This document shows, piece after piece, positions 1 to 31,449 of a stretch of 64,000 nucleotides of DNA. The first letter of the stretch is position 1; the number at the start of each line of letters is the position of its first letter. A program made the translations under genes and the position numbers. A model generated the notes under the pieces. It had not been told where the DNA came from and made no database searches. It saw nothing but the letters and a program-made list of their open reading frames with translations. Source of the DNA: Escherichia coli (GTDB lineage: Bacteria > Pseudomonadota > Gammaproteobacteria > Enterobacterales > Enterobacteriaceae); assembly GCF_044324875.1 (NCBI RefSeq), contig NZ_CP172185.1; one strand, written 5' to 3'.

Positions 1-197
1 GTAAAGGCTGGGTGGAAAGGTTGCCGAACCCGAATGACAAGCGCGGCGTACTGGTAAAACTTACCACCAGCGGCGCGGCAATATGTGAACAATGCCATCA
101 ATTAGTTGGCCAGGACCTGCACCAAGAATTAACAAAAAACCTGACGGCGGACGAAGTGGCAACACTTGAGCATTTGCTTAAGAAAGTCCTGCCGTAA
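1..197 (+). CDS. marR: MarR multiple-antibiotic-resistance repressor, C-terminal part (5' end outside window)
   Basis: ORF runs in frame to stop at 197; C-terminal translation matches MarR; followed by marA and marB. Confidence 0.85.
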
Positions 198-216
198 ACA
201 AAAAAGAGGTATGACG

Positions 217-600
217 ATGTCCAGACGCAATACTGACGCTATTACCATTCATAGCATTTTGGACTGGATCGAGGACAACCTGGAATCGCCACTGTCACTG
301 GAGAAAGTGTCAGAGCGTTCGGGTTACTCTAAATGGCACCTGCAACGGATGTTTAAAAAAGAAACCGGTCATTCATTAGGCCAATACATCCGCAGCCGTA
401 AGATGACGGAAATCGCGCAAAAGCTGAAGGAAAGTAACGAGCCGATACTCTATCTGGCAGAACGATATGGCTTCGAGTCGCAACAAACTCTGACCCGAAC
501 CTTCAAAAATTACTTTGATGTTCCGCCGCATAAATACCGGATGACCAATATGCAGGGCGAATCGCGCTTTTTACATCCATTAAATCATTACAACAGCTAG
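217..600 (+). CDS. marA: MarA AraC/XylS-family transcriptional activator (127 aa)
   Basis: Translation [31 protein letters not shown]... recognised as MarA; ATG at 217 (alternative ATG at 211). Confidence 0.95.
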
Positions 601-631
601 TTGATAACGTGACAACGTCACTGAGGCAATC

Positions 632-850
632 ATGAAACCACTTTTATCCGCAATTGCAGCTGCGCTTATTCTCTTTTCCGCGCAGGGCGTTGCGGAACAA
701 ACCACGCAGCAGGTTGTTACTTCCTGTGCCAATGTCGTGGTTGTTCCCCCATCGCATGAACAACCACCGTTTGATTTAAATCACATGGGTACTGGCAGTG
801 ATAAGTCGGATGCGCTCGGCGTGCCCTATTATAATCAACACGCTATGTAG
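632..850 (+). CDS. marB: MarB small periplasmic protein (72 aa)
   Basis: 72-aa ORF with signal peptide immediately after marA. Confidence 0.9.
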   Translation: MKPLLSAIAAALILFSAQGVAEQTTQQVVTSCANVVVVPPSHEQPPFDLNHMGTGSDKSDALGVPYYNQHAM

Positions 851-859
851 TTTGTTCTG

Positions 860-877
860 GCCCCGACATATCGGGGC
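860..877. terminator. Hairpin between convergent marB and eamA (likely bidirectional terminator)
   Basis: Inverted repeat gccccgacatatcggggc followed by T-rich run. Confidence 0.5.
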
Positions 878-880
878 TTA

Positions 881-1780
881 TTAACTTCCCACTTTTACCG
901 CTTTACGCCACCGCAAGCCAAATACATTGATATACAGCCCGGTCATAATGAGCACCGCACCGAAAAATTGCAGACCCGTTAAGCGTTCATCCAGCAATAG
1001 TGCCGCACTTGCCAGTCCTACTACGGGCACCAGTAACGATAACGGTGCAACCCGCCAGGTTTCATAGCGTCCCAGTAACGTCCCCCAGATCCCATAACCA
1101 ACAATTGTCGCCACAAACGCCAGATACATCAGAGACAAGATGGTGGTCATATCGATAGTGACCAGACTGTGAATCATGGTTGCGGAACCATCGAGAATCA
1201 GCGAGGCAACAAAGAAGGGAATGATTGGGATTAATGCGCTCCAGATTACCAGCGACATCACCGCCGGACGCGTTGAGTGCGACATGATCTTTTTATTGAA
1301 GATGTTGCCACACGCCCAACTAAATGCTGCCGCCAGGGTCAACATAAAGCCGAGCATCGCCACATGCTGACCGTTCAGACTATCTTCGATTAACACCAGT
1401 ACGCCAAAAATCGCTAAGGCGATCCCCGCCAATTGTTTGCCATGCAGTCGCTCACCGAAAGTAAACGCGCCAAGCACGATAGTAAAAAACGCCTGTGCCT
1501 GTAACACCAACGAAGCCAGACCAGCAGGCATACCGAAGTTAATGGCACAAAAAAGAAAAGCAAACTGCGCAAAACTGATGGTTAATCCATACCCCAGCAG
1601 CAAATTCAGTGGTACTTTCGGTCGTGCGACAAAAAAGATAGCCGGAAAAGCAACCAGCATAAAGCGCAAACCGGCCAGCATCAGCGGTGGCATGTTATGA
1701 AGCCCCACTTTGATGACCACAAAATTTAGCCCCCATACGACCACTACCAGTAGCGCCAACACCCCATCTTTTCGCGACAT
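881..1780 (-). CDS. eamA: EamA (YdeD) cysteine/O-acetylserine exporter, 299 aa
   Basis: Polytopic membrane protein translation starting MSRKDGVLALLVVVVWGLNF; internal start chosen within the longer ORF. Confidence 0.9.
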   Translation of the reverse strand: MSRKDGVLALLVVVVWGLNFVVIKVGLHNMPPLMLAGLRFMLVAFPAIFFVARPKVPLNLLLGYGLTISFAQFAFLFCAINFGMPAGLASLVLQAQAFFTIVLGAFTFGERLHGKQLAGIALAIFGVLVLIEDSLNGQHVAMLGFMLTLAAAFSWACGNIFNKKIMSHSTRPAVMSLVIWSALIPIIPFFVASLILDGSATMIHSLVTIDMTTILSLMYLAFVATIVGYGIWGTLLGRYETWRVAPLSLLVPVVGLASAALLLDERLTGLQFFGAVLIMTGLYINVFGLRWRKAVKVGS

Positions 1781-1974
1781 TCTACCGCCTCTGAATTTCA
1801 TCTTTTGTAAGCAATCAACTTAGCTGAATTTACTTTTCTTTAACAGTTGATTCGTTAGTCACCCTTTACGACGGCATTAATGCGCAAATAAGTCGCTATA
1901 CTTCGGATTTTTGCCATGCTATTTCTTTACATCTCTAAAACAAAACATAACGAAACGCACTGCCGGACAGACAA

Positions 1975-3162
1975 ATGAACTTATCCCTACGACGCTCTAC
2001 CAGCGCCCTTCTTGCCTCGTCGTTGTTATTAACCATCGGACGCGGCGCTACGCTGCCGTTTATGACCATTTACTTGAGTCGCCAGTACAGCCTGAGTGTC
2101 GATCTAATCGGTTATGCGATGACAATTGCGCTCACTATTGGCGTCGTTTTTAGCCTCGGTTTTGGTATCCTGGCGGATAAGTTCGACAAGAAACGCTATA
2201 TGTTACTGGCAATTACCGCCTTCGCCTGCGGTTTTATTGCCATTCCTTTAGTGAATAACGTGACGCTGGTGGTGCTCTTTTTTGCCCTCATTAACTGCGC
2301 CTATTCCGTTTTTGCTACTGTGTTGAAAGCCTGGTTTGCCGACAATCTTTCGTCCACCAGCAAAACGAAAATCTTCTCAATCAACTACACCATGCTCAAC
2401 ATTGGCTGGACCATCGGTCCGCCGCTCGGCACGCTGTTGGTGATGCAGAGCATCAATCTGCCCTTTTGGCTGGCAGCTATCTGTTCCGCGTTTCCCATGC
2501 TTTTCATTCAAATTTGGGTAAAGCGCAGCGAGAAAATCATCGCCACGGAAACAGCCAGTGCCTGGTCGCCGAAAGTTTTATTACAAGATAAAGCACTGTT
2601 GTGGTTTACCTGCTCTGGCTTTCTGGCTTCTTTTGTTAGCGGCGCATTTGCTTCATGCATTTCACAATATGTGATGGTGATTGCTGATGGGGATTTTGCC
2701 GAAAAGGTGGTCGCGGTTGTTCTTCCAGTGAATGCTGCCATGGTAGTTACGTTGCAATATTCCGTGGGCCGGCGACTTAACCCGGCTAACATCCGCACGC
2801 TGATGACAGCAGGCACCCTCTGTTTCGTCATCGGTCTGGTCGGTTTTATTTTTTCCGGCAACAGCCTGCTATTGTGGGGTATGTCAGCTGCGGTATTTAC
2901 TGTCGGTGAAATCATTTATGCGCCGGGCGAGTATATGTTGATTGACCATATTGCGCCGCCAGGAATGAAAGCCAGCTATTTTTCCGCTCAGTCTTTAGGC
3001 TGGCTTGGTGCGGCGATTAACCCATTAGTGAGTGGCATAGTGCTAACCAACCTGCCGCCTTCCTCGCTGTTTATCATCTTAGCGTTGGTGATCATTGCTG
3101 CGTGGGTGCTGATGTTAAAAGGAATTCGTGCAAGACCGTGGGGGCAGCCCGCGCTTTGTTGA
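1975..3162 (+). CDS. ydeE: YdeE MFS transporter, 395 aa
   Basis: 395-aa multi-TM ORF recognised as YdeE. Confidence 0.9.
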   Translation: MNLSLRRSTSALLASSLLLTIGRGATLPFMTIYLSRQYSLSVDLIGYAMTIALTIGVVFSLGFGILADKFDKKRYMLLAITAFACGFIAIPLVNNVTLVVLFFALINCAYSVFATVLKAWFADNLSSTSKTKIFSINYTMLNIGWTIGPPLGTLLVMQSINLPFWLAAICSAFPMLFIQIWVKRSEKIIATETASAWSPKVLLQDKALLWFTCSGFLASFVSGAFASCISQYVMVIADGDFAEKVVAVVLPVNAAMVVTLQYSVGRRLNPANIRTLMTAGTLCFVIGLVGFIFSGNSLLLWGMSAAVFTVGEIIYAPGEYMLIDHIAPPGMKASYFSAQSLGWLGAAINPLVSGIVLTNLPPSSLFIILALVIIAAWVLMLKGIRARPWGQPALC

Positions 3163-3288
3163 TTTAAGTCGAACACAATAAAAATTTAATTCAGCCTTCG
3201 TTTAGGTTACCTCTGCTAATATCTTTCTCATTGAGATGAAAATTAAGGTAAGCGAGGAAACACACCACACCATAAACGGAGGCAAATA

Positions 3289-3384
3289 ATGCTGGGTAAT
3301 ATGAATGTTTTTATGGCCGTACTGGGAATAATTTTATTTTCTGGTTTTCTGGCCGCGTATTTCAGCCACAAATGGGATGACTAA
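3289..3384 (+). CDS. mgtS: MgtS (YneM) 31-aa small membrane protein
   Basis: ATG at 3289 encodes MLGNMNVFMAVLGIILFSGFLAAYFSHKWDD with stop at 3382-3384; not in the ORF track because it is under 60 aa. Confidence 0.85.
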   Translation: MLGNMNVFMAVLGIILFSGFLAAYFSHKWDD

Positions 3385-3411
3385 TGAACGGAGATAATCC
3401 CTCACCTAACC

Positions 3412-3450
3412 GGCCCCTTGTTACAGTTGTGTACAAGGGGCCTGATTTTT
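3412..3450 (+). terminator. Rho-independent terminator of mgtS
   Basis: Stem ggccccttgt...acaaggggcc followed by tgattttt. Confidence 0.6.
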
Positions 3451-3459
3451 ATGACGGCA

Positions 3460-3560
3460 AAAAAAAACCGCCAGTAAACCGGCGGTGAATGCTTGCATGG
3501 ATAGATTTGTGTTTTGCTTTTACGCTAACAGGCATTTTCCTGCACTGATAACGGATCGTT
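3460..3560 (-). ncRNA. mgrR: MgrR small RNA (PhoP-activated), about 95-100 nt
   Basis: Minus-strand unit ending in terminator accgcc-N8-ggcggt plus T9 (3460-3488), preceded by a PhoP-box-like direct repeat at 3590-3610; lies between mgtS and dgcZ as in K-12; ends approximate. Confidence 0.6.
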
Positions 3561-3589
3561 GACACAGTAGCATCAGTTTTCTCAATGAA

Positions 3590-3610
3590 TGTTAAACGGA
3601 GCTTAAACTC
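3590..3610 (-). promoter_or_regulatory. PhoP-box-like direct repeat (GTTTAA-N5-GTTTAA) upstream of mgrR
   Basis: Minus-strand reads gaGTTTAAgctccGTTTAAcat, two hexamers with 11-bp periodicity; overlaps the dgcZ stop. Confidence 0.5.
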
Positions 3611-4493
3611 GGTTAATCACATTTTGTTCGTCAATAAACATACAGCGATTTCTTCCGGTTTGCTTACCCTCATACATTGCCCGGTCCGCTCTTCCAATGA
3701 CCACATCCAGAGGTTCTTCAGGAAATGCGCGACTCACACCTGCAGTCACGGTAATGTTGATATGCCCTTCAGAATGTGTGATGGCATGGTTATCGACTAA
3801 CTGGCAAATTCTGATACCTGCACGACATGCTTCTTCATCATTAGCCGCTTTGACAATAATGATAAATTCTTCGCCACCGTAGCGATAAACCGTTTCGTAA
3901 TCGCGCGTCCAACTGGCTAAGTAAGTTGCCAGGGTGCGTAATACTACATCGCCGATTAAATGCCCGTAGGTATCATTAACCAATTTAAATCGGTCAATAT
4001 CCAACAACATTAAATAAAGATTCAGAGGCTCAGCGTTGCGTAACTGATGATCAAAGGATTCATCAAGAACCCGACGACCCGGCAATCCCGTCAAAACATC
4101 CATATTGCTACGGATCGTCAGCAAATAAATTTTGTAATCGGTTAATGCCGCAGTAAAAGAAAGCAACCCTTCCTGAAAGGCGTCGAAATGCGCGTCCTGC
4201 CAGTGATTTTCAACAATAGCCAACATTAATTCCCGACCACAGTTATGCATATGTTGATGGGCAGAATCCATTAGCCGAACGTAAGGTAATTCATCGTTAT
4301 CGAGTGGTCCCAGATGATCAATCCACCGACCAAACTGGCACAGTCCATAAGAATGGTTATCCGTTATTTCTGGCTTACTGGCATCTCTCGCGACCACGCT
4401 GTGAAACATACTCACCAGCCACTGGTAGTGGGCATCGATAGCCTTATTGAGATTTAACAAGATGGCATCAATTTCCGTTGTCTTCTTGATCAT
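3603..4493 (-). CDS. dgcZ: DgcZ (YdeH) zinc-regulated diguanylate cyclase, 296 aa
   Basis: Translation MIKKTTEIDAILLNLNKAIDAHYQWL... with GGEEF motif (RYGGEEFIII). Confidence 0.92.
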   Translation of the reverse strand: MIKKTTEIDAILLNLNKAIDAHYQWLVSMFHSVVARDASKPEITDNHSYGLCQFGRWIDHLGPLDNDELPYVRLMDSAHQHMHNCGRELMLAIVENHWQDAHFDAFQEGLLSFTAALTDYKIYLLTIRSNMDVLTGLPGRRVLDESFDHQLRNAEPLNLYLMLLDIDRFKLVNDTYGHLIGDVVLRTLATYLASWTRDYETVYRYGGEEFIIIVKAANDEEACRAGIRICQLVDNHAITHSEGHINITVTAGVSRAFPEEPLDVVIGRADRAMYEGKQTGRNRCMFIDEQNVINRV

Positions 4494-4747
4494 TGCCACT
4501 CCTTTTTCACAGTTCCTTGTGCGCGCTATTCTAACGAGAGAAAAGCAAAATTACGTCAATATTTTCATAGAAATCCGAAGTTATGAGTCATCTCTGAGAT
4601 AACATTGTGATTTGAAACAAAATCAGCAGATAAAAAAGTGTTTAATTCTGTAAATTAAGCCTGCATTATCGCAATTAAAAGGATGACAAATAGCATAAAC
4701 CAATACCCTAATGGCCCAGTAGTTCAGGCCATCAGGCTCATTTATTT

Positions 4748-5140
4748 TTATTTCTGCAAATGAGTGACCCGAACGACGGCCGGCGCGCTTTTCTTATCCA
4801 GACTGCCGCTAATGTTGATCATCTGGTCCGGCTGAACTTCTCGTCCATCAAAGACTGCCGCAGGAATAACAACATTAATTTCACCGCTCTTATCGCGAAA
4901 AACGTAACGGTTCTCTCCTTTGTGAGAAATCAAATTACCGCGTAGTGAAACCGAAGCGCCATCATGCATGGTTTTTGCGAAATCTACGGTCATTTTTTTT
5001 GCATCATCGGTTCCGCGATAGCCATCTTCTATTGCATGAGGCGGCGGTGGCGCTGCATCCTGTTTTAAACCGCCCTGGTCATCTGCCAACGCATAAGGCA
5101 TGACAAGAAAACTTGCTAATACAATGGCCTGAAATTTCAT
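4748..5140 (-). CDS. ydeI: YdeI periplasmic OB-fold (YgiW/BOF family) stress protein, 130 aa
   Basis: 130-aa secreted protein with signal peptide. Confidence 0.85.
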
Positions 5141-5461
5141 ACTGACTCCTTAATTGCGTTTGGTTTGACTTATTAAGTCTGGTTGCTATTTTTATAATTG
5201 ACAAATAAGAATACTGCCAATTGTTATAAGGCATTTAAAATCAGGCAACTAGCTGTCAAATATTAAGAGAATTTAACTCACTAAAGTAAGAAGAAGATTA
5301 AAGAGTCTTAAACATATTTCAGAACAATCAGATTTATAAATTTGAAAATTATTATAACGGAAGGGTATACAAAAAAAGTAATTTTGCTGGCGACTGCGAA
5401 ACGGCATTCGCATTAGCGGTGAAGTTTGCCCCCACCCAGCTGCTGCAATTACTGCTCTAAC

Positions 5462-5500
5462 CAGGCTGGCCTGGCGATATCTCCAGGCCAGCCATTGGTG
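5462..5500. terminator. Hairpin just downstream of dcp
   Basis: Inverted repeat ggctggcctgg / ccaggccagcc directly after the dcp stop. Confidence 0.45.
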
Positions 5501-5504
5501 GTGT

Positions 5505-7550
5505 TTATATGTTCAAGCCACGATGTTGCAGCATCGGCATAATCTGAGGTGCCTTACCGCGCCATTGTCGATACAGGCGTTCCAGATCTTCGCTGTTACC
5601 TCTGGAAAGAATCGCCTCGCGAAAACGCCGCCCATTTTCACGCGTTAATCCGCCCTGCTCAACAAACCACTGGTAACCATCATCGGCCAACATTTGCGTC
5701 CACAGATAAGCGTAATAACCTGCGGCATATCCGCCACCAAAAATATGGGCGAAATAACTGCTGCGATAGCGTGGCGGTATAGCGGGAAGATCCATATTTT
5801 CTGCCACCAGCGCCCGCAATTCGAAATCATCGACATCCTGCATTGCTTCGTTTTCTTCCAGGCAATGCCAGCGCATATCGAGAAGTGCGGCGCTAAGCAG
5901 TTCGCTCATCTCATACCCTTTATTGAACAGGCTGGCATTACGCATTTTCTGTTGCAGTTCGTCAGGCATTGCTGCCCCGCTCTGATAATGCCGGGCGTAG
6001 CGAGCGAATACCTGCGGATGCGTTGCCCAGTGTTCGTTGATTTGCGACGGAAATTCGACAAAATCACGCGGCGTGTTGGTGCCGGAAAGTGTGGCATAAC
6101 GCTGGCGGGCAAAGAGGCCGTGCAACGTATGACCAAATTCATGGAATAAGGTTATGACATCATCCCAGAGTAACAACGCAGGCTCACCGGCAGCGGGTTT
6201 CTGATAATTGCAGACGTTATAAATTACCGGATGCGTTTCATTAAGCGTTGATTGCTCAACAAAATTGCCCATCCATGCACCGCCGCTTTTTGAATCACGG
6301 GCGAAGAAATCACCGTAAAATAACGCCAGCCCCACGCCATTATGATCAAAAATTTCCCATACACGAACGTCAGGATGGTAGACAGGAATATCAAAACGTT
6401 CGACAAACTTAATACCGAAGAGCTGATTCGCGGTCCAGAATACACCTTCATTCAACACCGTGTTTAATTCAAAATATGGCTTGAGCTGCGATTCATCGAG
6501 ATCGAATTTCTCACGTCTTACCTGCTCGGCATAAAATGCCCAGTCCCACGGCTGCGCGCTAAACCCGCCCTGCTGCTTATCGATAACCGCCTGTATGGAG
6601 GCTAATTCATCGCTCGCACGTTGACGCGCCGCTGGAACAATTTCCCGCATAAAGTTGAGTGCTGCTTCTGGCGTTTTTGCCATCTGATCGGCGATTTTCC
6701 ATGCGGCATAATGAGGGAAACCAAGCAGTTTCGCCTGCTGCGCGCGGATCTCCACCAGACGTTGAATGATAGCGCGGGTATCATTGGCATCATTTTTTTC
6801 CGCTCGCGTCCAGCCCGCAGTGAACAGTTTTTCACGCGTCGCGCGATCGCGCAGTTCAGCAAGCGCTGGTTGCTGGGTGGTATTCAGCAACGGAATCAGC
6901 CATTTGTTATCCAGACCTTTCTCGCGAGCCGCCTCTGCCGCCAGCGCAATCTCTTGCTCACTCATTCCTGCCAGCTGCGCGAAATCGTTCACAACCAGAC
7001 CGCCGGATTTATTTGCTGCCAGTAACCGCTGGTTAAACTGGCTGGTCAGGGTCGCAGCTTCTGTATTCAGGACTTTTAATTTTGCTTTATCAGCTTGTGC
7101 AAGTTTGGCTCCGGCAAGGACAAAACGTTGATGAATGACCTCCACCAGGCGGATGGATTCACTATCAAGTCCCAGGGATTCACGGCGTTGCCAGACAGCA
7201 TCTACCCGCGCGAATAATTCACCGTTCAGATAGATATCATTAGCCAGTTCCGCCAGTTCAGCGGAAAACTGTTCATCAAGACGCTGTAATTCATCATTAG
7301 TATGCGCCGCAGTCATCGCAAAAAAGACGCTGGTAACGCGGGTAAGTAATTCTCCGCTTTGTTCCAGTGCCAGAATAGTATTGTTGAAATCAGGTGTTTG
7401 CGGGTTAAGCGCGATGGCAGCAATTTCTGCCCGCTTTTGCTGCATTCCCTCATCGAATGCCGGGCGATAGTGATGATTGGCAATTTGATCAAAATGGGGA
7501 GCCAGATACGGCAGTGTGCTTTGCACAAGGAAAGGATTCATTGTTGTCAT
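5505..7550 (-). CDS. dcp: Dcp dipeptidyl carboxypeptidase II (M3 family), 681 aa
   Basis: Translation from MTTMNPFLVQSTLPYL...; HEFGH zinc motif present (LFHEFGHTLH). Confidence 0.93.
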   Translation of the reverse strand: MTTMNPFLVQSTLPYLAPHFDQIANHHYRPAFDEGMQQKRAEIAAIALNPQTPDFNNTILALEQSGELLTRVTSVFFAMTAAHTNDELQRLDEQFSAELAELANDIYLNGELFARVDAVWQRRESLGLDSESIRLVEVIHQRFVLAGAKLAQADKAKLKVLNTEAATLTSQFNQRLLAANKSGGLVVNDFAQLAGMSEQEIALAAEAAREKGLDNKWLIPLLNTTQQPALAELRDRATREKLFTAGWTRAEKNDANDTRAIIQRLVEIRAQQAKLLGFPHYAAWKIADQMAKTPEAALNFMREIVPAARQRASDELASIQAVIDKQQGGFSAQPWDWAFYAEQVRREKFDLDESQLKPYFELNTVLNEGVFWTANQLFGIKFVERFDIPVYHPDVRVWEIFDHNGVGLALFYGDFFARDSKSGGAWMGNFVEQSTLNETHPVIYNVCNYQKPAAGEPALLLWDDVITLFHEFGHTLHGLFARQRYATLSGTNTPRDFVEFPSQINEHWATHPQVFARYARHYQSGAAMPDELQQKMRNASLFNKGYEMSELLSAALLDMRWHCLEENEAMQDVDDFELRALVAENMDLPAIPPRYRSSYFAHIFGGGYAAGYYAYLWTQMLADDGYQWFVEQGGLTRENGRRFREAILSRGNSEDLERLYRQWRGKAPQIMPMLQHRGLNI

Positions 7551-7686
7551 TTTCTTCTCCTGAACGCGAGGTGTTCCATAGCGTAGGCTTACTGATAACG
7601 GAGTGCAATCTTGCAAACCAGTATTACCCGCTCTTAAGCATCACGTGCTATGTTATTGACACACAAAAGCGTTGAGGAACAGTGAG

Positions 7687-8433
7687 ATGATCGTTTTAGT
7701 AACTGGAGCAACGGCAGGTTTTGGTGAATGCATTACTCGTCGTTTTATTCAACAAGGGCATAAAGTTATCGCCACTGGCCGTCGCCAGGAGCGGTTGCAG
7801 GAGTTAAAAGACGAACTGGGAGATAATCTTTATATCGCCCAACTGGACGTTCGCAACCGCGCCGCTATTGAAGAGATGCTGGCATCGCTTCCTGCCGAGT
7901 GGAGCAATATTGATATCCTGGTAAATAATGCCGGCCTGGCGTTGGGCATGGAGCCTGCGCATAAAGCCAGCGTTGAAGACTGGGAAACGATGATTGATAC
8001 CAACAATAAAGGCCTGGTATATATGACGCGCGCCGTCTTACCGGGTATGGTTGAACGTAATCATGGTCATATTATTAACATTGGCTCAACGGCAGGTAGC
8101 TGGCCGTATGCCGGTGGTAACGTTTACGGTGCGACGAAAGCGTTTGTTCGTCAGTTTAGCCTGAATCTGCGTACGGACCTGCATGGTACGGCGGTGCGCG
8201 TCACCGACATCGAACCGGGTCTGGTGGGTGGCACCGAGTTTTCCAATGTCCGCTTTAAAGGCGATGACGGTAAAGCGGAAAAAACCTATCAAAATACCGT
8301 TGCATTGACGCCAGAAGATGTCAGCGAAGCCGTCTGGTGGGTATCAACGCTGCCTGCTCACGTTAATATCAATACCCTGGAAATGATGCCGGTTACCCAA
8401 AGCTATGCCGGACTGAATGTCCACCGTCAGTAA
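7687..8433 (+). CDS. ydfG: YdfG NADP-dependent short-chain dehydrogenase, 248 aa
   Basis: SDR Rossmann motif TGATAGFG near N-terminus; start MIVLVTG. Confidence 0.9.
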   Translation: MIVLVTGATAGFGECITRRFIQQGHKVIATGRRQERLQELKDELGDNLYIAQLDVRNRAAIEEMLASLPAEWSNIDILVNNAGLALGMEPAHKASVEDWETMIDTNNKGLVYMTRAVLPGMVERNHGHIINIGSTAGSWPYAGGNVYGATKAFVRQFSLNLRTDLHGTAVRVTDIEPGLVGGTEFSNVRFKGDDGKAEKTYQNTVALTPEDVSEAVWWVSTLPAHVNINTLEMMPVTQSYAGLNVHRQ

Positions 8434-8521
8434 TTTTTATACCCGGCGTAACTGCCGGGTTATTGCTTGTCACAAAAAAGTGGTAGACTCATGCAGTTAA
8501 CTCACTCACAAGCAAGAACGA

Positions 8522-9208
8522 ATGACCGTCGAAACGCAACTTAATCCCACACAGCCTGTCAATCAGCAGATTTATCGTATTCTTCGTCGCGACATTGTCC
8601 ATTGCCTGATTGCACCAGGCACACCGTTGTCGGAAAAAGAAGTTTCTGTTCGTTTCAATGTGTCACGCCAGCCGGTTCGTGAAGCCTTTATTAAACTGGC
8701 GGAAAACGGCCTGATTCAAATTCGTCCGCAGCGTGGCAGCTACGTCAACAAAATTTCCATGGCCCAGGTGCGCAACGGCAGTTTTATCCGTCAGGCCATT
8801 GAGTGCGCGGTGGCGCGTCGGGCGGCGAGCATGATTACCGAAAGCCAGTGCTACCAACTGGAACAAAATCTTCACCAGCAACGCATTGCCATTGAGCGCA
8901 AGCAACTGGATGATTTTTTTGAACTTGATGACAACTTCCATCAACTCCTGACGCAGATTGCCGACTGTCAACTGGCGTGGGATACCATTGAGAACCTGAA
9001 AGCGACCGTTGATCGCGTGCGCTATATGAGTTTCGACCACGTTTCTCCACCAGAAATGCTGTTACGCCAGCATCTTGAGATTTTCTCTGCCCTGCAAAAA
9101 CGTGATGGCGATGCGGTAGAACGTGCAATGACGCAACATTTGCAGGAAATCAGCGAATCCGTGCGCCAGATCCGCCAGGAAAACAGCGACTGGTTTAGCG
9201 AAGAGTAA
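8522..9208 (+). CDS. ydfH: YdfH (RspR) GntR-family transcriptional regulator, 228 aa
   Basis: N-terminal GntR-type HTH with FadR-like C-terminal domain. Confidence 0.85.
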
Positions 9209-9281
9209 TTCATTTCCTCTCATCCCATTCGGGGTGAGAGTCTCTCCCCCCGCCTTATGGCTCATGCATGCATCAAAAAAG

Positions 9282-9296
9282 ATGTGAGCTTGATCA
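9282..9296 (+). promoter_or_regulatory. Possible FNR half-site pair (TTGATcaaaAACAA) upstream of ydfZ
   Basis: Near-match to TTGAT-N4-ATCAA about 90 bp upstream of the ydfZ start. Confidence 0.3.
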
Positions 9297-9384
9297 AAAA
9301 CAAAAAATATTTCACTCGACAGGAGTATTTATATTGCGCCCGTTACGTGGGCTTCGACTGTAAATCAGAAAGGAGAAAACACCT

Positions 9385-9588
9385 ATGACGACCTACGATC
9401 GTAACCGTAACGCAATCACCACTGGCAGCCGTGTTATGGTTAGCGGCACCGGTCACACTGGCAAGATCCTGTCGATTGATACTGAAGGTCTGACCGCTGA
9501 GCAAATCCGCCGCGGAAAAACCGTAGTTGTTGAAGGTTGTGAAGAGAAACTGGCACCTCTGGACCTGATTCGTCTCGGCATGAACTAA
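9385..9588 (+). CDS. ydfZ: YdfZ small protein, 67 aa
   Basis: 67-aa ORF with strong SD (aggagaaaacacctATG). Confidence 0.85.
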
Positions 9589-9623
9589 GCGTGTGAATGC
9601 CGCCGATGGCGGCATTGCTTTTT

Positions 9624-11084
9624 TTACTTCACGGAATATTTCGCAACGGTCGCTTTCGCACCATGCGCTAATAAAGACAAGTACGCTTCCGTCACTTTTG
9701 CAGTAAACAAGCTATTGTCTGGCAAATCATCACCAAAGATCGCCTTAATCGCCAGCAATGACTGGACGCGCGCTTTCCCTTCGGCACTACTTTGTACAGC
9801 CTTCTGAATAACAGGTAACAGTGGGTCACTGCTTTCTATCGGATTTCCCTGTTCATCAACACCACCGACATAACGCATCCAACCTGCGACGCCCAGCGCC
9901 AGCAGATCGAACTTGCTGTCATGCGCCAGATGCCAGCGAACAGAATCCAACATCCGCTGTGGCAATTTCTGGCTGCCATCCATCGCAATCTGCCAGGTTC
10001 GATGACGTAGCGCCGGGTTGCTATAGCGTTCAATTAATCGGTTAGCGTAATCTTGCAAATCAACGCCCTGCACTTTCAACGTCGGCGCTTGTTCCTGCAA
10101 CATCAAGGCATACGCTGCATGACGATAATGTTCATCTTCCATGCAGTCATTAATGTGCTGATATCCGGCAAGATACCCCAGATACGCCAGGAATGAATGA
10201 CTGCCGTTGAGCATGCGCAACTTCATCTCTTCATAAGGCAGCACATCACTAACCAGTTCGGCTCCCGCTTTTTCCCATTCCGGACGTCCGGCAACAAAGT
10301 TATCTTCTATTACCCACTGGCGGAAAGGTTCACAGGCAACGCCAGCAGGATCGCGCACACCGGTAAGTTGTTCGATTTTCGCCAGCGTATCCTCTGTCAC
10401 TGCGGGCACAATACGGTCCACCATTGTTGATGGGAAAGTCACGTTTACTTCGATCCATTGTGCCAGTTTTACATCAACAGCTTGCGCGTAGGAAGTGACA
10501 ACGTCACGCATAACATGACCGTTTTCTGGCATGTTGTCACATGACATGACGGTAAATGCGGGAAGTCCTGCCGCTTTACGGCGAGCCAGCGCCTCAACAA
10601 TCACCCCTGTTGCAGTTTTCGGCTGGTGGGGATTTTGCACGTCGGCAGCGACCATCGGGTGATCGAGCATTAACTGTCCGGTCGCCGGAGAGTGGAAATA
10701 CCCTTTTTCGGTGATTGTCAGAGAGACAATCGCGATTTGCGGTTCACACATCGCAGCCAACACGGTTTCTAAGCCATCTATCTGTACGTGCAAGGCTTTT
10801 TTAACGACGCCAACGACGCGAGCCGTCCACGCATCGGCCGACATTTCCGCAACGGTATAAAGATTATCTTGCTGTTGTAAATCGGCAATTTGCTGTTCGC
10901 CGCCGATTAAATTGACCTCATAATATCCCCAATCACTGAAATGTTTTGTAGCAAGAATATCGGCATACACGCCCTGATGCGCACGGTGAAATGCGCCAAA
11001 GCCTAAATGAACAATTCTTGGGGCCAAGTTATTACGATCATAAACAGGGAGCGTCGCTTTTGCTGATAACAAATTATTTCCCAT
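9624..11084 (-). CDS. ydfI: YdfI mannitol/mannonate dehydrogenase-family oxidoreductase, 486 aa
   Basis: N-terminal NAD-binding motif [10 protein letters not shown]. Confidence 0.9.
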
Positions 11085-11173
11085 AACAATTCCTTAAATT
11101 TAAATATGGCAAGCTGCATGTTTTGTTATATGAATAAAAAATCCCCTCTCCGGTAAGAGAAGGGATGGAGGAT

Positions 11174-12541
11174 TTACAGACTTCTTGAAGGTTGCGCAGC
11201 TGTTACAACACGCGGTTGATCTTCCGCGGCATCTTCCAGTGCACTTAAATCACGGTCTCTCACTTCTGGCATTTTCAGCGCAGAGATTAAACCAATCACT
11301 GAATATGCCATGATCATAATGGCGATCGGATACCAGGATTCCGTCATGGTGCAGAAAATACCCGCCAGGATAGGACCAAAACCGGAAGCGATAAGACCAC
11401 CAATTTCTTTAGAAATCGCCATCCGGGTAAAGCGGTTTTTACAGCCGAACATTTCTGCCATGGTAATGTTTTCCAGAGCAAATAATCCCAGCACCGCACA
11501 GTTATGAATCACAATCAGTGCAACCATAATGGTGCTCGGGGCATAGCTTTTATCTACGATGATAGAAAGCATTGGCCACGCCAGCACAATCGCAGAGGTA
11601 TTCATAATAATATACGGGATCCGGCGACCTATTTTATCGGATAACCAACCAAGGAACGGAATGGTCATAAAGCCGAGAATCGAACTGATCATCAATGCAT
11701 CTGTTGGAATTGCTTTGTTAAACAATAACGTCTGCACTAAATAGCCTGCAAGGAAAGTCTGAATTAAACCGGAGTTACCAGCCTGACCAAAACGCAGCCC
11801 TGTTGCCAGCCAGAAGGATTTGCTCTGGAACATGCTACCAGCAGGTGCAGGTTTTGCTGTCGGTTGGTTGCTGTCGTTAACCTTCTCAAAGACCGGGCTT
11901 TCTTTCAGATTCATACGCAACCAGATAGCAAAGACCATCACGACAACGCTCGCCAGGAACGGTATACGCCATCCCCACGCAAGCAGTTCCTCTTTACTGA
12001 GAATGAAGAACATAAAGGCCCAGATTGCCGTTGCGCTCAAGGTTCCGCAGTTAGTCCCCATAGCAACAAATGAGGAGATAATTCCGCGCTTACCTTTTGG
12101 TGCATATTCCGCCAGCATCGTGCCGGCACCGGAAATTTCCGCGCCTGCCCCCAGCCCCTGAATAATACGCAGCGTCACCAGCAAAATTGGCGCAAACACA
12201 CCAATTTGTGCATAGGTCGGCAGCACACCAATTAAGGTAGTACAGATCCCCATCATAGTGATGGTAATAAAGAGCACTTTTTTACGCCCGATTCTGTCGC
12301 CCATTTTGCCGAAAATAAATGCTCCGACAATACGCGCCACATAACCTGCACCGTAGGTTCCCATTGCCAGAATTAACGCCATTGCCGTTGATGATTCAGG
12401 AAAAAATATTTCATGAAACACTAACGCTGCGCCGAGCGAATATAACTGGAAATCCATAAATTCAAGCGCAGTGCCCAGCCATCCCGATACTGCTGCTTTC
12501 ACCAAATCCTTAGTGCTTCTTTCGTGTTTTTCTATTGTCAT
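11174..12541 (-). CDS. ydfJ: YdfJ MFS transporter, full-length 455 aa
   Basis: Multi-TM MFS translation, uninterrupted. Confidence 0.85.
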   Translation of the reverse strand: MTIEKHERSTKDLVKAAVSGWLGTALEFMDFQLYSLGAALVFHEIFFPESSTAMALILAMGTYGAGYVARIVGAFIFGKMGDRIGRKKVLFITITMMGICTTLIGVLPTYAQIGVFAPILLVTLRIIQGLGAGAEISGAGTMLAEYAPKGKRGIISSFVAMGTNCGTLSATAIWAFMFFILSKEELLAWGWRIPFLASVVVMVFAIWLRMNLKESPVFEKVNDSNQPTAKPAPAGSMFQSKSFWLATGLRFGQAGNSGLIQTFLAGYLVQTLLFNKAIPTDALMISSILGFMTIPFLGWLSDKIGRRIPYIIMNTSAIVLAWPMLSIIVDKSYAPSTIMVALIVIHNCAVLGLFALENITMAEMFGCKNRFTRMAISKEIGGLIASGFGPILAGIFCTMTESWYPIAIMIMAYSVIGLISALKMPEVRDRDLSALEDAAEDQPRVVTAAQPSRSL

Positions 12542-12598
12542 AATGGTTATCTCTAAAAAAGAGGTAAGATGCGTACTACTTACTCGCCGTTATTGGTA

Positions 12599-13618
12599 TT
12601 ATTCAGAAAAAGTGAGTAAGACTTTGCAGCAATGCTTTTGATCCTGTTCAAATAAACTAATGGCATCAGCAACATGCTGGAAATCAAACGTATGGGTAAT
12701 TAGTTTTTCTGGTTTAATTAACCCTTTACTTAACCAGTCGATAACGACCGGGAATTTATTTGCATTTAAGCGTGAAGAGAAAATAGAGAGTTCTTTTCCG
12801 GTAATTCCTTGCTGAATCACTTCAGACGGTTCACTGGAGAAGCCCATCAATACAATACGTGCCGCTGGAGAAGCCAGCGTTACGGCTTCTTTCAGGATTG
12901 AAGGATGACAAGCCGCATCGATAATTAATGTCGGCTTTATGCCTTTTTCAGCGAAAATCTCGCCAAGCGGTGTCTGGCTGTTATTAATCGCCCAGTCTGC
13001 CCCGCTCTCTTTCGCTTTTTCCAGTCGTTCATCAATGCGATCGGCAACAATCACATTCTTAACGTTATAGACGCCTTTTAATACCTGAACGATCGTCAGG
13101 CCGATTGGACCGGCACCGTAAACCAGAACGGTATCATTTTCAGTCGGTTGACCATGACCGGTAACGTTAGCCGCAATGGTAAAAGGTTCGATCATCACCG
13201 CATATTGATCGGCCACTGCTTCAGGAATTTTCCACGCATTTTTTGCCGGCACCACGGCATATTCACTGAAACCACCGTCAGCGTGCACACCTAATACAGC
13301 CAGTGTCGTACAAACGTTCGGCTTACCTATAGAGCACGGATAGCAATGCCCACAGCTGACCACCGGATCGACAGCAACGCGTTCACCGACTCTGGCGCTT
13401 TCCACGCCTTCACCCACTGCATCAATGACGCCAAAGAATTCATGACCAATGACGCGCGGATATTTCGCAAAAGGATTATGCCCACGATAAATATGGCTAT
13501 CTGAACCACAAATTCCGGCAAGTTTCACTTTTACTCGTACTTCACCCGCTGACGGGGTGGGTATTTCGCGTTCGATAATTGCCAGTTGATTCGGTTTTTC
13601 AATTAAAATGCTTTTCAT
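12599..13618 (-). CDS. rspB: RspB zinc-type alcohol dehydrogenase-like starvation-sensing protein, 339 aa
   Basis: MDR signatures GHEFFG and GAGPIG; start MKSILIEK. Confidence 0.9.
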   Translation of the reverse strand: MKSILIEKPNQLAIIEREIPTPSAGEVRVKVKLAGICGSDSHIYRGHNPFAKYPRVIGHEFFGVIDAVGEGVESARVGERVAVDPVVSCGHCYPCSIGKPNVCTTLAVLGVHADGGFSEYAVVPAKNAWKIPEAVADQYAVMIEPFTIAANVTGHGQPTENDTVLVYGAGPIGLTIVQVLKGVYNVKNVIVADRIDERLEKAKESGADWAINNSQTPLGEIFAEKGIKPTLIIDAACHPSILKEAVTLASPAARIVLMGFSSEPSEVIQQGITGKELSIFSSRLNANKFPVVIDWLSKGLIKPEKLITHTFDFQHVADAISLFEQDQKHCCKVLLTFSE

Positions 13619-13629
13619 TATCTTACTCC

Positions 13630-14844
13630 TTACCAGTTCCACAGCGTGCCATCTTCCAGACGTGCGACTGGCAGATAAGCAGGTTCATAGGGATATTTCG
13701 CCGCCAGCTTTTCATCGAATTCGATGCCAAGACCCGGTTTGTCTCCCGGATGCATATAGCCGTTATCGAAAGTCCAGTTGTGCGGGAAGACTTCAAGCAT
13801 TTGTTCGGAATAACCCATGTATTCCTGGACACCGAAATTGGGGACCCACAGATCAAAGTGCAGCGCCGCAGCCATGCAGACTGGTGACAAATCGGAAGGA
13901 CCGTGTGAGCCAGTACGTACCTGATACAACGAAGCAAAATCGGCAATCCGGCGCATACCGGTAATTCCGCCTGCATGGGTCAGCGTGGTGCGGATATAAT
14001 CGATAAGTTGCTCTTCAATCAGTTGATTGCAGTCCCAGATGCTGTTGAAGACTTCACCCACCGCGATGGGTGTGACGGTATGTTGGCGAATGAGACGGAA
14101 GCATTCCTGGTTTTCCGCAGGCGTCGGGTCTTCCATCCAGAACATGCGATAATCTTCAATGCTTTTACCAAAGCGCGCCGCTTCAATAGGCGTTAAGCGA
14201 TGGTGCATGTCATGCAGCAAATGTTCATTAAAACCAAACTTGTTACGTACCGCGTCAAACAATTTCGGCATGAAATCGAGGTATTTCTCCGTCGACCACA
14301 ACTGCTCTTCCGGCCACTGTCCTTTGGTTGCGGGTTCATAAGCCAGACCTTTGCCTTTCGACATGCCGTAGGTGGTTTTCATACCAGGGATTCCGCACTG
14401 CACGCGGATGGCTTTGAATCCCAGCTCCTGATGACGGGCATAATCATCCAGAGCTTCATCAATACTGTGACCGGTGGTATGGCAATAAACCATCACCCCT
14501 TCACGAGACGCGCCGCCGAGTAACTGGTAAAGCGGCATGTTGGCAGCTTTGGCTTTAATATCCCACAGCGCCATATCAACCGCTGAAATGGCCGACATCG
14601 TCACCGGACCGCGACGCCAGTAAGCACCTTTATAGAAAAACTGCCAGATATCTTCGATACGGTGTGCATCGCGACCAATAAGCTGCGGACAAAGGTGATC
14701 CTGCAAATAAGAGGCCACGGAAAGCTCACGTCCATTGAGGGTGGCATCCCCAAGGCCCGTAATACCGTCCTCAGTGGTGATTTTTAATGTGACGAAATTA
14801 CGCCCCGGACAGGTAACAAAAACTTCAGCCTTTACGATCTTCAT
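13630..14844 (-). CDS. rspA: RspA enolase-superfamily mannonate dehydratase-like protein, 404 aa
   Basis: Translation [27 protein letters not shown]...; 11 bp upstream of rspB. Confidence 0.9.
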
Positions 14845-15049
14845 GTTCGATTCCTTGCATCGCTTGTCGTGATGCATGAAACCTACGCAACTGAGCTACT
14901 ACCATACAAGTATGAAGATCGAAAAAAGCCGGAGTGATCACAAAAAAAGGCGTATATTTGCGCCGGGAATGGTTGACAAAAGATGAAATAGAATACCTTT
15001 TGTCAGCTGACACTTCCTTGTATCTTATTGATAAAATGGATTTATGTCC

Positions 15050-15376
15050 TTACGCGCGCCCCCAGCCCGCAACAATGATCAACATGCCGCAAAGCGCAAT
15101 CAACGCCCCCGTCCAGTCATAAAGACTCAGTTTCACGCCATCCACAACGCGCAGCCACATCAACGCCGTGCAGACATAAACGCCACCATAAGCCGCGTAA
15201 ACACGCCCACTCGCCGCAGGATGCAACGTTAACAACCAGACAAACAGTGCCAGAGAAATCCCCGCCGGAAGCAACAGCCAGATACTGGCGTTTCGTTTTA
15301 ACCACAACCAGGGCAGAAAGCATCCAATAATTTCACACAGCGCAGTAGCAAAAAATAGTAACGTTGTTTTAATCAT
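15050..15376 (-). CDS. ynfA: YnfA UPF0060 inner-membrane protein, 108 aa
   Basis: Small 4-TM protein. Confidence 0.85.
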
Positions 15377-15510
15377 CTTTGTCACTTATTGACATCATGT
15401 ATAGTTATAGGACGACATAATATCATCAATATAAACATCCTCCTGGTACGTTTTGCGTTCGCAGTGGATGGTGTAGAATCACCTTTAATCATTCATACAG
15501 GGAATGAATT

Positions 15511-15852
15511 ATGAAAATTACTCTCAGCAAACGAATTGGCCTGCTCGCTTTTCTGCTGCCTTGCGCACTGGCATTGAGCACAACTGTTCATGCCGAAAAT
15601 AACAAACTGGTGATTGAGTCTGGCGACAGTGCGCAAAGCCGCCAGCACGCCGCTATGGAAAAAGAGCAATGGAATGACACGCGCAATCTGCGCCAGAAAG
15701 TGAATAAACGCACTGAAAAAGAGTGGGATAAAGCCGACGCCGCTTTTGATAACCGCGATAAATGTGAGCAAAGCGCCAACATCAATGCCTACTGGGAGCC
15801 AAATACTTTGCGCTGCCTGGACCGTCGAACTGGCCGCGTTATTACCCCCTAA
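15511..15852 (+). CDS. ynfB: YnfB secreted protein, 113 aa
   Basis: Signal peptide plus charged mature region. Confidence 0.85.
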
Positions 15853-15886
15853 CCTGTTATTGATTTAAGGAATGTAAGGACACGTT

Positions 15887-16447
15887 ATGCCAAGCGCCCA
15901 CAGTGTTAAGCTACGCCCGCTGGAGCGTGAAGATTTACGCTATGTACATCAACTCGACAATAACGCCAGTGTGATGCGTTACTGGTTTGAGGAACCCTAC
16001 GAAGCCTTTGTTGAACTCTCTGATCTGTACGATAAGCATATTCACGATCAGAGCGAACGGCGCTTTGTGGTGGAATGTGACGGCGAAAAAGCCGGTCTGG
16101 TGGAGCTGGTGGAAATTAACCATGTTCATCGCCGCGCAGAATTTCAGATAATTATCTCCCCGGAATATCAGGGGAAAGGTCTGGCAACGCGTGCCGCAAA
16201 ATTAGCAATGGACTATGGCTTCACCGTTCTCAATCTCTATAAGCTGTATCTGATCGTCGATAAAGAGAATGAAAAAGCGATACACATTTACCGCAAGCTT
16301 GGCTTTACGGTTGAAGGTGAATTGATACATGAGTTCTTTATTAATGGTCAATATCGGAATGCCATTCGCATGTGCATATTCCAGCATCAGTATCTGGCAG
16401 AGCACAAAACACCGGGTCAGACTCTCCTGAAGCCGACCGCACAATAG
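15887..16447 (+). CDS. speG: SpeG spermidine N-acetyltransferase, 186 aa
   Basis: GNAT-fold translation; stop TAG at 16445-16447 abuts the IS1 end. Confidence 0.93.
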
Positions 16448-16462
16448 GGTAATGACTCCAAC

Positions 16463-16966
16463 TTATTGATAGTGTTTTATGTTCAGATAATGCCCGATGA
16501 CTTTGTCATGCAGCTCCACCGATTTTGAGAACGACAGCGACTTCCGTCCCAGCCGTGCCAGGTGCTGCCTCAGATTCAGGTTATGCCGCTCAATTCGCTG
16601 CGTATATCGCTTGCTGATTACGTGCAGCTTTCCCTTCAGGCGGGATTCATACAGTGGCCAGCCATCCGTCATCCATATCACCACGTCAAAGGGTGACAGC
16701 AGGCTCATAAGACGCCCCAGCGTCGCCATAGTGCGTTCACCGAATACGTGCGCAACAACCGTCTTCCGGAGCCTGTCATACGCGTAAAACAGCCAGCGCT
16801 GGCGCGATTTAGCCCCGACATAGCCCCACTGTTCGTCCATTTCCGCGCAGACGATGACGTCACTGCCCGGCTGTATGCGCGAGGTTACCGACTGCGGCCT
16901 GAGTTTTTTAAGTGACGTAAAATCGTGTTGAGGCCAACGCCCATAATGCGGGCAGTTGCCCGGCAT
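16463..16966 (-). CDS. insB: IS1 InsB transposase component, 167 aa
   Basis: Translation [26 protein letters not shown]... recognised as IS1 InsB. Confidence 0.93.
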
Positions 16967-17160
16967 CCAACGCCATTCATGGCCATATCAATGATTTTCT
17001 GGTGCGTACCGGGTTGAGAAGCGGTGTAAGTGAACTGCAGTTGCCATGTTTTACGGCAGTGAGAGCAGAGATAGCGCTGATGTCCGGCGGTGCTTTTGCC
17101 GTTACGCACCACCCCGTCAGTAGCTGAACAGGAGGGACAGCTGATAGAAACAGAAGCCAC
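16885..17160 (-). CDS. insA: IS1 InsA, 91 aa
   Basis: Translation [30 protein letters not shown]...; overlaps insB in the -1 frame. Confidence 0.93.
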
Positions 17161-17225
17161 TGGAGCACCTCAAAAACACCATCATACACTAAATCAGTAA
17201 GTTGGCAGCATCACCCACAATAGCA

Positions 17226-25599: not shown

Positions 25600-25793
25600 G
25601 ATCACCGTAATATTGCCGGATGGTGACGATTACGCGCAATTCGGCAATAATAGGTTACAGCGTCACGTTTTTTTATCTCTTAAAGCACGCACTGCTTTTG
25701 CGGCTGGCCTCTTTTGCCGCAAAATAGTCGCCCGTGTTTCATTGCCCATTTCTGCTCATGCATCATCTACACATCTATCCGGATCTGCGCACT

Positions 25794-27050
25794 ATGTTCC
25801 GCCGTCTGCTTATCGCAACAGTCGTCGGTATTCTTGCGGCCTTTGCCGTTGCCGGGTTTCGTCATGCAATGCTGCTACTGGAGTGGTTGTTCCTCAATAA
25901 TGACTCGGGCAGTCTGGTCAATGCAGCGACAAATCTTTCCCCATGGCGACGGCTGCTAACCCCGGCGCTCGGCGGACTGGCGGCGGGTTTGTTGCTGATG
26001 GGCTGGCAGAAATTTACCCAGCAACGCCCTCATGCGCCGACCGATTACATGGAAGCGTTGCAAACCGATGGGCAGTTTGATTACGCAGCAAGCCTGGTTA
26101 AATCGCTTGCCTCTCTGCTGGTAGTAACCAGCGGCAGTGCAATTGGTCGCGAAGGTGCGATGATTCTTTTAGCTGCCCTTGCCGCCTCCTGTTTTGCCCA
26201 ACGTTTTACGCCACGCCAGGAGTGGAAATTATGGATCGCCTGTGGGGCCGCGGCGGGAATGGCTGCGGCCTATCGTGCCCCGCTTGCTGGCAGTTTATTT
26301 ATAGCCGAAGTGCTGTTTGGCACTATGATGTTGGCCTCTCTCGGCCCGGTGATTATTTCCGCCGTCGTGGCGTTGCTGGTTAGCAATCTGATTAATCATA
26401 GCGACGCGTTACTCTACAGCGTACAACTCTCAGTGACGGTTCAGGCTCGTGACTATGCGCTGATTATCAGTACAGGTGTGCTGGCAGGTCTGTGCGGACC
26501 ACTGTTGTTAACGTTAATGAACGCCTGTCATCGTGGATTTGTGAGTCTCAAACTTGCGCCGCCCTGGCAACTGGCACTGGGCGGGTTGATCGTGGGTCTG
26601 CTTTCCCTGTTCACACCTACAGTGTGGGGCAACGGCTATAGCACCGTACAATCCTTTTTAACCGCCCCGCCACTGTTAATGATCATTGCCGGGATCTTCC
26701 TATGTAAACTGTTTGCCGTGCTGGCGAGTAGTGGTTCTGGCGCGCCCGGTGGTGTCTTTACACCGACGCTATTTATCGGTCTTGCCATTGGCATGCTGTA
26801 TGGTCGTAGCCTGGGATTATGGTTCCCTGATGGCGAAGAAATGACGCTTTTACTCGGATTGACCGGAATGGCGACACTGTTGGCGGCGACCACGCACGCG
26901 CCGATTATGTCGACGTTGATGATATGTGAAATGACCGGGGAATATCAGCTACTCCCCGGTTTATTGATTGCCTGCGTAATTGCGTCGGTAATTTCGCGGA
27001 CGTTACACCGTGACTCTATCTACCGCCAGCACACTGCGCAGCATAGCTAA
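25794..27050 (+). CDS. clcB: ClcB voltage-gated ClC-type chloride channel, 418 aa
   Basis: ClC motifs GSAIGREG and GxFxP (GGVFTP); start [10 protein letters not shown]. Confidence 0.9.
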
Positions 27051-30177: not shown

Positions 30178-31431
30178 GTGAGCCGTACTACAACTGTTGA
30201 TGGCGCTCCGGCAAGCGACACTGACAAGCAAAGCATTTCTCAGCCAAATCAATTTATTAAACGCGGTACGCCGCAATTTATGCGCGTCACCCTGGCGCTG
30301 TTCTCTGCCGGACTGGCAACCTTCGCACTTCTCTATTGTGTGCAACCTATCCTTCCGGTGCTTTCGCAGGAGTTTGGCTTAACGCCCGCGAACAGTAGTA
30401 TTTCACTGTCCATTTCCACGGCGATGTTGGCTATCGGTTTGCTGTTTACTGGCCCGTTATCCGATGCCATTGGTCGCAAACCAGTGATGGTCACGGCGCT
30501 ACTGTTGGCCTCCATTTGTACGTTACTTTCGACAATGATGACCAGCTGGCACGGCATTTTGATTATGCGCGCCTTGATTGGGCTTTCGTTAAGTGGCGTA
30601 GCAGCTGTTGGCATGACTTATCTTAGCGAGGAAATCCACCCCAGTTTCGTGGCCTTTTCGATGGGGTTGTATATCAGCGGCAACTCAATTGGCGGCATGA
30701 GCGGACGCTTAATTAGCGGTGTCTTCACGGACTTTTTCAACTGGCGAATTGCGCTGGCGGCAATCGGTTGTTTCGCGCTGGCCTCGGCGTTAATGTTCTG
30801 GAAAATCCTCCCTGAATCACGCCATTTTCGCCCGACTTCGCTGCGACCTAAGACGTTGTTTATCAACTTTCGTCTGCACTGGCGTGACCGGGGATTACCG
30901 TTATTGTTCGCAGAAGGCTTTTTGCTGATGGGGTCGTTCGTCACGCTGTTTAATTACATCGGCTATCGGTTGATGCTCTCCCCCTGGCATGTCAGCCAGG
31001 CCGTGGTTGGCTTATTATCGCTGGCTTATTTGACCGGTACATGGAGCTCACCCAAAGCCGGAACCATGACCACCCGCTATGGGCGCGGTCCGGTGATGTT
31101 GTTTTCGACGGGGGTTATGCTGTTTGGTTTACTGATGACCTTATTTAGCTCGCTGTGGCTGATCTTTGCCGGAATGTTACTCTTCTCAGCCGGATTCTTC
31201 GCAGCCCACTCAGTAGCCAGCAGCTGGATCGGCCCCCGCGCAAAACGCGCTAAAGGCCAGGCCTCCTCGCTGTATCTGTTCAGTTACTATCTGGGGTCGA
31301 GTATTGCCGGGACGCTGGGTGGTGTTTTCTGGCATAACTATGGCTGGAACGGCGTCGGCGCATTTATTGCTCTGATGCTGGTCATTGCTCTGCTGGTCGG
31401 GACGCGTTTGCATCGTCGTCTGCACGCCTGA
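30178..31431 (+). CDS. ynfM: YnfM MFS transporter, 417 aa
   Basis: 12-TM MFS translation. Confidence 0.88.
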   Translation: MSRTTTVDGAPASDTDKQSISQPNQFIKRGTPQFMRVTLALFSAGLATFALLYCVQPILPVLSQEFGLTPANSSISLSISTAMLAIGLLFTGPLSDAIGRKPVMVTALLLASICTLLSTMMTSWHGILIMRALIGLSLSGVAAVGMTYLSEEIHPSFVAFSMGLYISGNSIGGMSGRLISGVFTDFFNWRIALAAIGCFALASALMFWKILPESRHFRPTSLRPKTLFINFRLHWRDRGLPLLFAEGFLLMGSFVTLFNYIGYRLMLSPWHVSQAVVGLLSLAYLTGTWSSPKAGTMTTRYGRGPVMLFSTGVMLFGLLMTLFSSLWLIFAGMLLFSAGFFAAHSVASSWIGPRAKRAKGQASSLYLFSYYLGSSIAGTLGGVFWHNYGWNGVGAFIALMLVIALLVGTRLHRRLHA

Positions 31432-31449
31432 AAAAATAAATATCCTCCG

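Follow-up and report, generated by a model that had tools for sequence, protein, structure and literature searches.

The window analyzed here, a stretch of 64,000 nucleotides of Escherichia coli DNA, very probably (about 96%) carries the empty attB of lambdoid phages of the Qin/mEp460 group, and hence an uninterrupted row of the genes rspA, rspB, ydfJ and ydfI. Intact ydfJ adjoins rspB in the window because no prophage is present at the site which Qin occupies in strain K-12. None of the evidence obtained by comparing the window with K-12, with free phages, with other Enterobacterales and with complete E. coli genomes contradicted this reading. Both the Qin insertion and the empty-site state have already been published (PMC6379469, PMC8112680); the difference between strains is a common one, and the window represents one more empty-site strain. 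The junction comprises the following features:

11174–12541, minus strand: ydfJ, an uninterrupted 455-codon open reading frame with an ATG start, MHS-family MFS transporter gene
12542–12598, no strand assigned: rspB-ydfJ intergenic spacer of 57 bp, between the ydfJ ATG and the rspB stop codon
12449–12464, no strand assigned: candidate unoccupied attB core GAAATCCATAAATTCA, 16 bp exact; the overlap of the flanks aligned by BLAST, 12446–12464, is 19 bp with one mismatch

Comparison with K-12 MG1655

An earlier note on this DNA had placed the Qin cryptic prophage between ydfJ and rspB in K-12 and had described K-12 ydfJ as truncated, which the K-12 genome bears out. Qin, of approximately 20.5 kb, is annotated at NC_000913.3 1632277..1652745 (20,469 bp), and ydfJ has lost its first 28 codons. 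The order of elements in K-12 is a 427-aa ydfJ (b1543), Qin, a 36-aa ynfP (b4534), 57 bp, and rspB. The same note had called for an alignment to MG1655. When window positions 8000–16000 were compared with K-12 by BLAST, 8000–12464 aligned to the left flank of Qin with 97.9% identity and 12446–16000 to the right flank with 98.3% identity, and no alignment of this section of the window to the Qin interior was obtained in the K-12 stretch. The junctions thus fall at window 12446–12464, inside ydfJ, and a contiguous ydfJ-rspB arrangement is absent from K-12.

Relative to the Qin site in K-12 ydfJ (attL and attR, NC_000913.3 1632277 and 1652745), the window equals K-12 minus Qin, joined at the core. 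The flanks are ~98% identical, and the 16-bp core and the 57-bp spacer are shared. The window differs from K-12 in that it has no prophage, a ydfJ of 455 instead of 427 codons, and no separate ynfP open reading frame. K-12 YdfJ starts at Met29 of the window protein (MDFQLY...), and K-12 YnfP consists of residues 1–31 of the window YdfJ followed by five phage-encoded residues (KSHAC). Judged by these alignments, ynfP of K-12 is a by-product of prophage insertion and not an independent gene. In the K-12 stretch that was fetched, ynfP is located at 25729–25839.

The ydfJ gene and its neighborhood

The earlier note had also described ydfJ as an uninterrupted MFS gene of 455 codons at a distance of 57 bp from rspB, a description with which the list of open reading frames, the TIGR00883 score and the RefSeq coordinates agree. 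The window YdfJ matched TIGR00883 (metabolite/H+ symporter) with 462.9 bits, above the cut-off of 443.45 bits and over profile positions 1–400 of 400, and had Pfam matches to MFS_1 and Sugar_tr. At the matching coordinates of E. coli M7424 (NZ_CP063153.1), whose sequence corresponding to window 11100–13700 is 100% identical, the RefSeq name is ‘MHS family MFS transporter YdfJ’. Based on these profiles and names, the window protein is assigned to the MHS (metabolite:H+ symporter) family of the MFS as an orthologue of YdfJ, with a predicted function in transport.

The neighboring genes are also annotated in M7424, where RefSeq lists ydfI, ydfJ, rspB and rspA at matching coordinates:

12599–13618, minus strand: rspB, Zn-dependent oxidoreductase, 339 aa (NF007489, 694.5 bits; RefSeq coordinates in M7424); its stop codon is at 12601–12599
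13630–14844, minus strand: rspA, D-mannonate dehydratase-family protein (enolase superfamily), 404 aa (NF011654, 818 bits; NF043051, 743 bits; RefSeq coordinates)
9624–11084, minus strand: ydfI, mannitol dehydrogenase / fructuronate reductase-family oxidoreductase (NF011611, 648.7 bits), downstream of ydfJ
8522–9208, plus strand: rspR (ydfH), encoding the GntR-type regulator of the rsp cluster (annotated by RefSeq in both M7424 and K-12)
11141–11166, minus strand: terminator-like hairpin and T-run right after the ydfJ stop codon, with an 11-pair stem followed by TTTTTATT, identified by consensus scan alone

The genes rspA, rspB, ydfJ and ydfI lie on one strand, with 11, 57, and 89 bp between successive genes. 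When the 57-bp rspB-ydfJ spacer was scanned for consensus sites, neither a promoter-like nor a terminator-like site was obtained. The short gap and this negative scan fit a model in which ydfJ would be transcribed together with rspAB where the site is empty.

Gene arrangement in other Enterobacterales

The degenerate motif E-F-M-D-F-Q-L-Y was scanned in one genome per species, and the loci found were searched by tblastn with the window proteins. In at least 30 loci of other Enterobacterales genera, rspB is followed directly by a full-length ydfJ that has the same orientation. These genera include Enterobacter, Citrobacter, Klebsiella (K. oxytoca), Siccibacter, Lelliottia, Pluralibacter, and Shimwellia, and further Pectobacterium, Brenneria, Serratia, Budvicia, Providencia, and Gilliamella. 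Among the matches listed, the gap between rspB and ydfJ measured 36–113 bp in 26 of 30 outgroup loci. Usually rspA was found upstream, and ydfI and rspR lay beyond ydfJ, so that rspR shares the locus with the cluster in these organisms, too. The recurrence of a contiguous rspB-ydfJ pair in at least 30 outgroup loci indicates that the arrangement predates Escherichia; this comparison rests on other genera, as no Escherichia species (E. albertii, E. fergusonii) was among the matches listed. With YdfJ as query, tblastn identities in the outgroup were 75–90%, and in most of these loci (at least 30 in all) the alignment started with query residue 1, which supports the ATG at 12541 as the native start.

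Only two of 30 outgroup ydfJ genes (among the matches listed) contained the exact 16-bp core, and the remaining ones differed from it synonymously. The attB sequence therefore appears to be largely Escherichia-specific, although the encoded (L)EFMDF motif is conserved.

The motif scan also listed many actinobacterial MHS paralogues. In Streptomyces, Microbacterium, Arthrobacter, Rhodococcus and other actinobacteria, YdfJ-like MHS transporters (50–57% identity) are encoded within a few kb of RspA-like dehydratases (57–67% identity). These neighborhoods suggest that the functional link between transporter and dehydratase is very old.

The attB core and its phage partner

The core corresponds to ydfJ nucleotides 78–93 in codons 26–31 (T GAA TTT ATG GAT TTC, encoding (L)EFMDF), and the insertion point of Qin is 77 nt downstream of the ydfJ ATG. 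According to the K-12 flank alignments, the window is composed of the outer attL arm, a single core, and the outer attR arm. The earlier note had proposed an unoccupied ancestral site and had flagged the spacer at 12542–12598. An empty site and the ancestral arrangement were indeed recovered, with attB placed not in the spacer but at 12449–12464. As an att site the spacer was rejected, because it is intact in K-12, where the ynfP-rspB spacer is identical to that of the window at 57 of 57 positions.

The legend of Fig. 4E in PMC6379469 likewise gives ydfJ as the gene into which Qin is inserted. In Nakamura et al. 2021 (PMC8112680, S7 Fig), which deals with the PPydfJ lambdoid prophages of STEC, the phage-free ydfJ of O104:H4 strain C227-11 serves as attB, and the att sequence of the locus is given as 18–19 bp. 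This STEC ‘ydfJ locus’ resembles the window in that an unoccupied ydfJ is the attB reference and in that, compared by length, 18–19 bp fits the 16-bp exact and 19-bp extended overlap observed here.

We queried sequenced phages with the K-12 intQ remnant together with attR. Four free phages (PhiR42_1, HannyBb, Tritos, and mEp460_ev081) matched with 98.8–99.8% identity over 98% of the query, and in all four the homology between phage and Qin ends at the last base of the core. The tyrosine integrase of mEp460_ev081 is 98.8% identical to the Qin intQ remnant at the DNA level. The respective region of this phage contains an excisionase gene (DUF1233) and the gene for an integrase of 426 aa (Arm-DNA-bind_2 and Phage_integrase), and the attP core GAAATCCATAATTCA is located ~37 bp downstream of the integrase gene. 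These attP and integrase modules differ from the feature in the window in that they belong to the phage side of the reaction and do not represent the bacterial site. The four sites are arranged as follows:

attB (window): ...ataactg-CORE-agcgcagtgcc...
attP (mEp460_ev081): ...tgactctt-CORE-caggtgtttttt...
attL (K-12): bacterial left arm, core, and phage arm ‘caggtgtttttt’ (longer: ‘caggtgttttttccc’)
attR (K-12): phage arm ‘...catgactctt’, core, and bacterial right arm

Thus, the attP of mEp460_ev081 unites around the core exactly those phage arms that flank Qin in the attL and attR of K-12. The attP core is one A shorter than the attB core, CATAATTCA (CATAA-TTCA) compared with CATAAATTCA, and in K-12 attL has the phage version of the core and attR the bacterial version. 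From this distribution of the two versions we infer that strand exchange would occur in the left 9–11 bp of the core.

A tyrosine integrase would accordingly recombine the attP core (GAAATCCATAA-TTCA) with the attB core of 16 bp in ydfJ codons 26–31, to which it is nearly identical, by the recombination chemistry expected from the integrase family. Through integration 77 nt into the gene, ydfJ would be parted from both its first 28 codons and the rsp promoter side, and the orphan 5' end of ydfJ would stay beside rspB, as the K-12 ‘ynfP’. In the window, where no such integration is seen, ydfJ has its full length and lies on the same strand 57 bp downstream of rspB, without a terminator-like signal in between. 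A comparable case in K-12 is the Rac prophage at the 5' end of ttcA: according to the legend of Fig. 4C in PMC6379469, this cryptic lambdoid prophage, too, has inserted site-specifically into the 5' part of a host gene, the N-terminus of which is altered. Rac/ttcA differs from Qin/ydfJ in the gene, the core, and the integrase.

Occupancy of the site in E. coli

A 411-bp junction query (window 12250–12660) was compared with 5,426 complete E. coli genomes. The junction was matched in 5,374 of them and was uninterrupted in 2,006 (37% of the 5,374). The interrupted genomes matched as two halves that ended at query positions 197–200 or 215, corresponding to window 12446–12464; break positions were examined in an even sample down the ranking, and nearly all sampled genomes break at the core. 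With a 2.6-kb query, 2,010 genomes were contiguous, and the others that were sampled break at query position 1365, which is window 12464. According to the occupancy figures in PMC6379469, 48% of the 638 genomes of Escherichia and Shigella considered there have a prophage of 11–97 kb at the ydfJ locus, and the STEC prophages considered in PMC8112680 identify the ydfJ site as a hotspot of lambdoid prophages, among them clusters that carry effectors or are associated with Stx. In NZ_OZ392478.1, the ydfJ-side half of the query is 99.9% identical, yet the site is occupied by a full lambdoid prophage whose tail module is complete. Occupancy therefore differs among close relatives.

This variability among close relatives also bears on the history of the site. 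The site could formerly have been occupied in this lineage, with the prophage lost by precise excision through integrase and excisionase and a scar-free attB restored, in which case the empty state would be secondary. We regard such a history as unlikely, albeit plausible enough to be weighed, as 63% of the E. coli genomes are occupied and as free phages of this att type have intact integrase and excisionase genes. However, precise excision is traceless, so that no sequence feature favors it, and the core in the window is of the bacterial type (‘AAA’) and lacks the phage-type ‘AA’, which suits a site that was never occupied. The bacterial ‘AAA’ would also suit an excision with its crossover on the same side as in integration. 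Since precise excision regenerates attB, the sequence does not separate a never-lysogenised lineage from a cured one, and the term ‘ancestral’ in the earlier note stands for the gene arrangement, which is shared by at least 30 outgroup loci, and not necessarily for the history of the lineage.

Because prophage regions are repeat-rich, we considered whether the assembly might have collapsed or skipped a prophage and so produced a falsely contiguous junction. The probability of such an artefact is negligible: nothing was found in its favor, the same uninterrupted junction occurs in the 2,006 complete genomes (several of them 100% identical across the junction), and the junction yields a perfect in-frame ydfJ that matches its orthologues from residue 1.

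Other elements in the window

The window is 99.94% identical to M7424 over positions 1–16447 and 98.8–99.3% identical beyond an IS1 copy, and in the comparison of the whole window with M7424 it has three extra segments. The IS1 copy, which is absent from M7424, is located at approximately 16448–17215, where the 3' ends of speG and ynfC converge, and encodes InsA (91 aa) and InsB (167 aa; Pfam DDE_Tnp_IS1). The step in divergence at IS1 could reflect a recombination boundary near speG/ynfC. An IS200-family element of 706 bp at 31440–32145, between ynfM and asr, is also absent from M7424; it contains an open reading frame for a 169-aa Y1_Tnp transposase at 31544–32053 on the minus strand.

At about 5380–5460, between ydeI and dcp, the annotation of M7424 has a gene fragment (‘2-oxo-tetronate isomerase’) of 81 bp, which looks like the remnant of a deleted gene block. 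In K-12, the gene between ydeI and dcp is presumably ydeJ.

A phage-like island of 15.6 kb without tail genes (35241–50812) splits tqsA and is flanked by a 9-bp repeat that corresponds to tqsA nucleotides 129–137. Its genes encode HK97-type capsid and portal proteins, a prohead protease and TerL, as well as a RepA/AAA_25 helicase and a tyrosine integrase (49408–50637, minus strand). In E. coli O43 RM10042, a homologous island additionally carries genes of the TerS, HNH, head-tail connector, head-closure, PerC, SSB, and Icd-like types. Such a set of genes agrees with the description of capsid-forming PICI satellites in a preprint (bioRxiv 10.1101/2025.02.11.637232). A 7-kb query across the left junction of the island was covered to at least 80% in 193 complete E. 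coli genomes, the best-ranked of which were ~95% identical; for window 30500–37500, the best match among complete E. coli genomes had 90% coverage at 94.7% identity.

Implications for the rsp/ydf cluster

The immediate consequence concerns annotation, as the 427-aa ydfJ and the 36-aa ynfP of K-12 are the two halves of a single ancestral gene; beyond correct annotation, the empty site may be of little consequence. It also marks a strain that would still be open to lysogeny by phages of the Qin/mEp460 type.

For the rsp/ydf cluster of E. coli CFT073, Wichelecki et al. (Biochemistry 2014) reportedly described a cryptic L-gulonate pathway. The substrate of YdfJ might be L-gulonate. Our full-text literature search returned no usable support for an L-gulonate pathway of the rspA/rspB/ydfJ/ydfI cluster. 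A far-reaching and, in our estimation, improbable idea is that prophage occupancy of the ydfJ core acts as an on/off switch for the sugar-acid pathway at the population level, a switch that an intact integrase would make reversible, and that in empty-site strains rspA-rspB-ydfJ(-ydfI) would form one RspR-controlled unit with a working transporter. If this were true, ydfJ would lack its promoter and 28 codons in 63% of E. coli, including K-12, uptake would be lost in these strains, and the rsp cluster of K-12 would be ‘cryptic’ as an artefact of the prophage. Since empty-site strains such as the one that contributed the window keep an intact transporter gene and an unbroken rspAB-ydfJI cluster, they would be a better model than K-12 for the rsp/ydf sugar-acid cluster.
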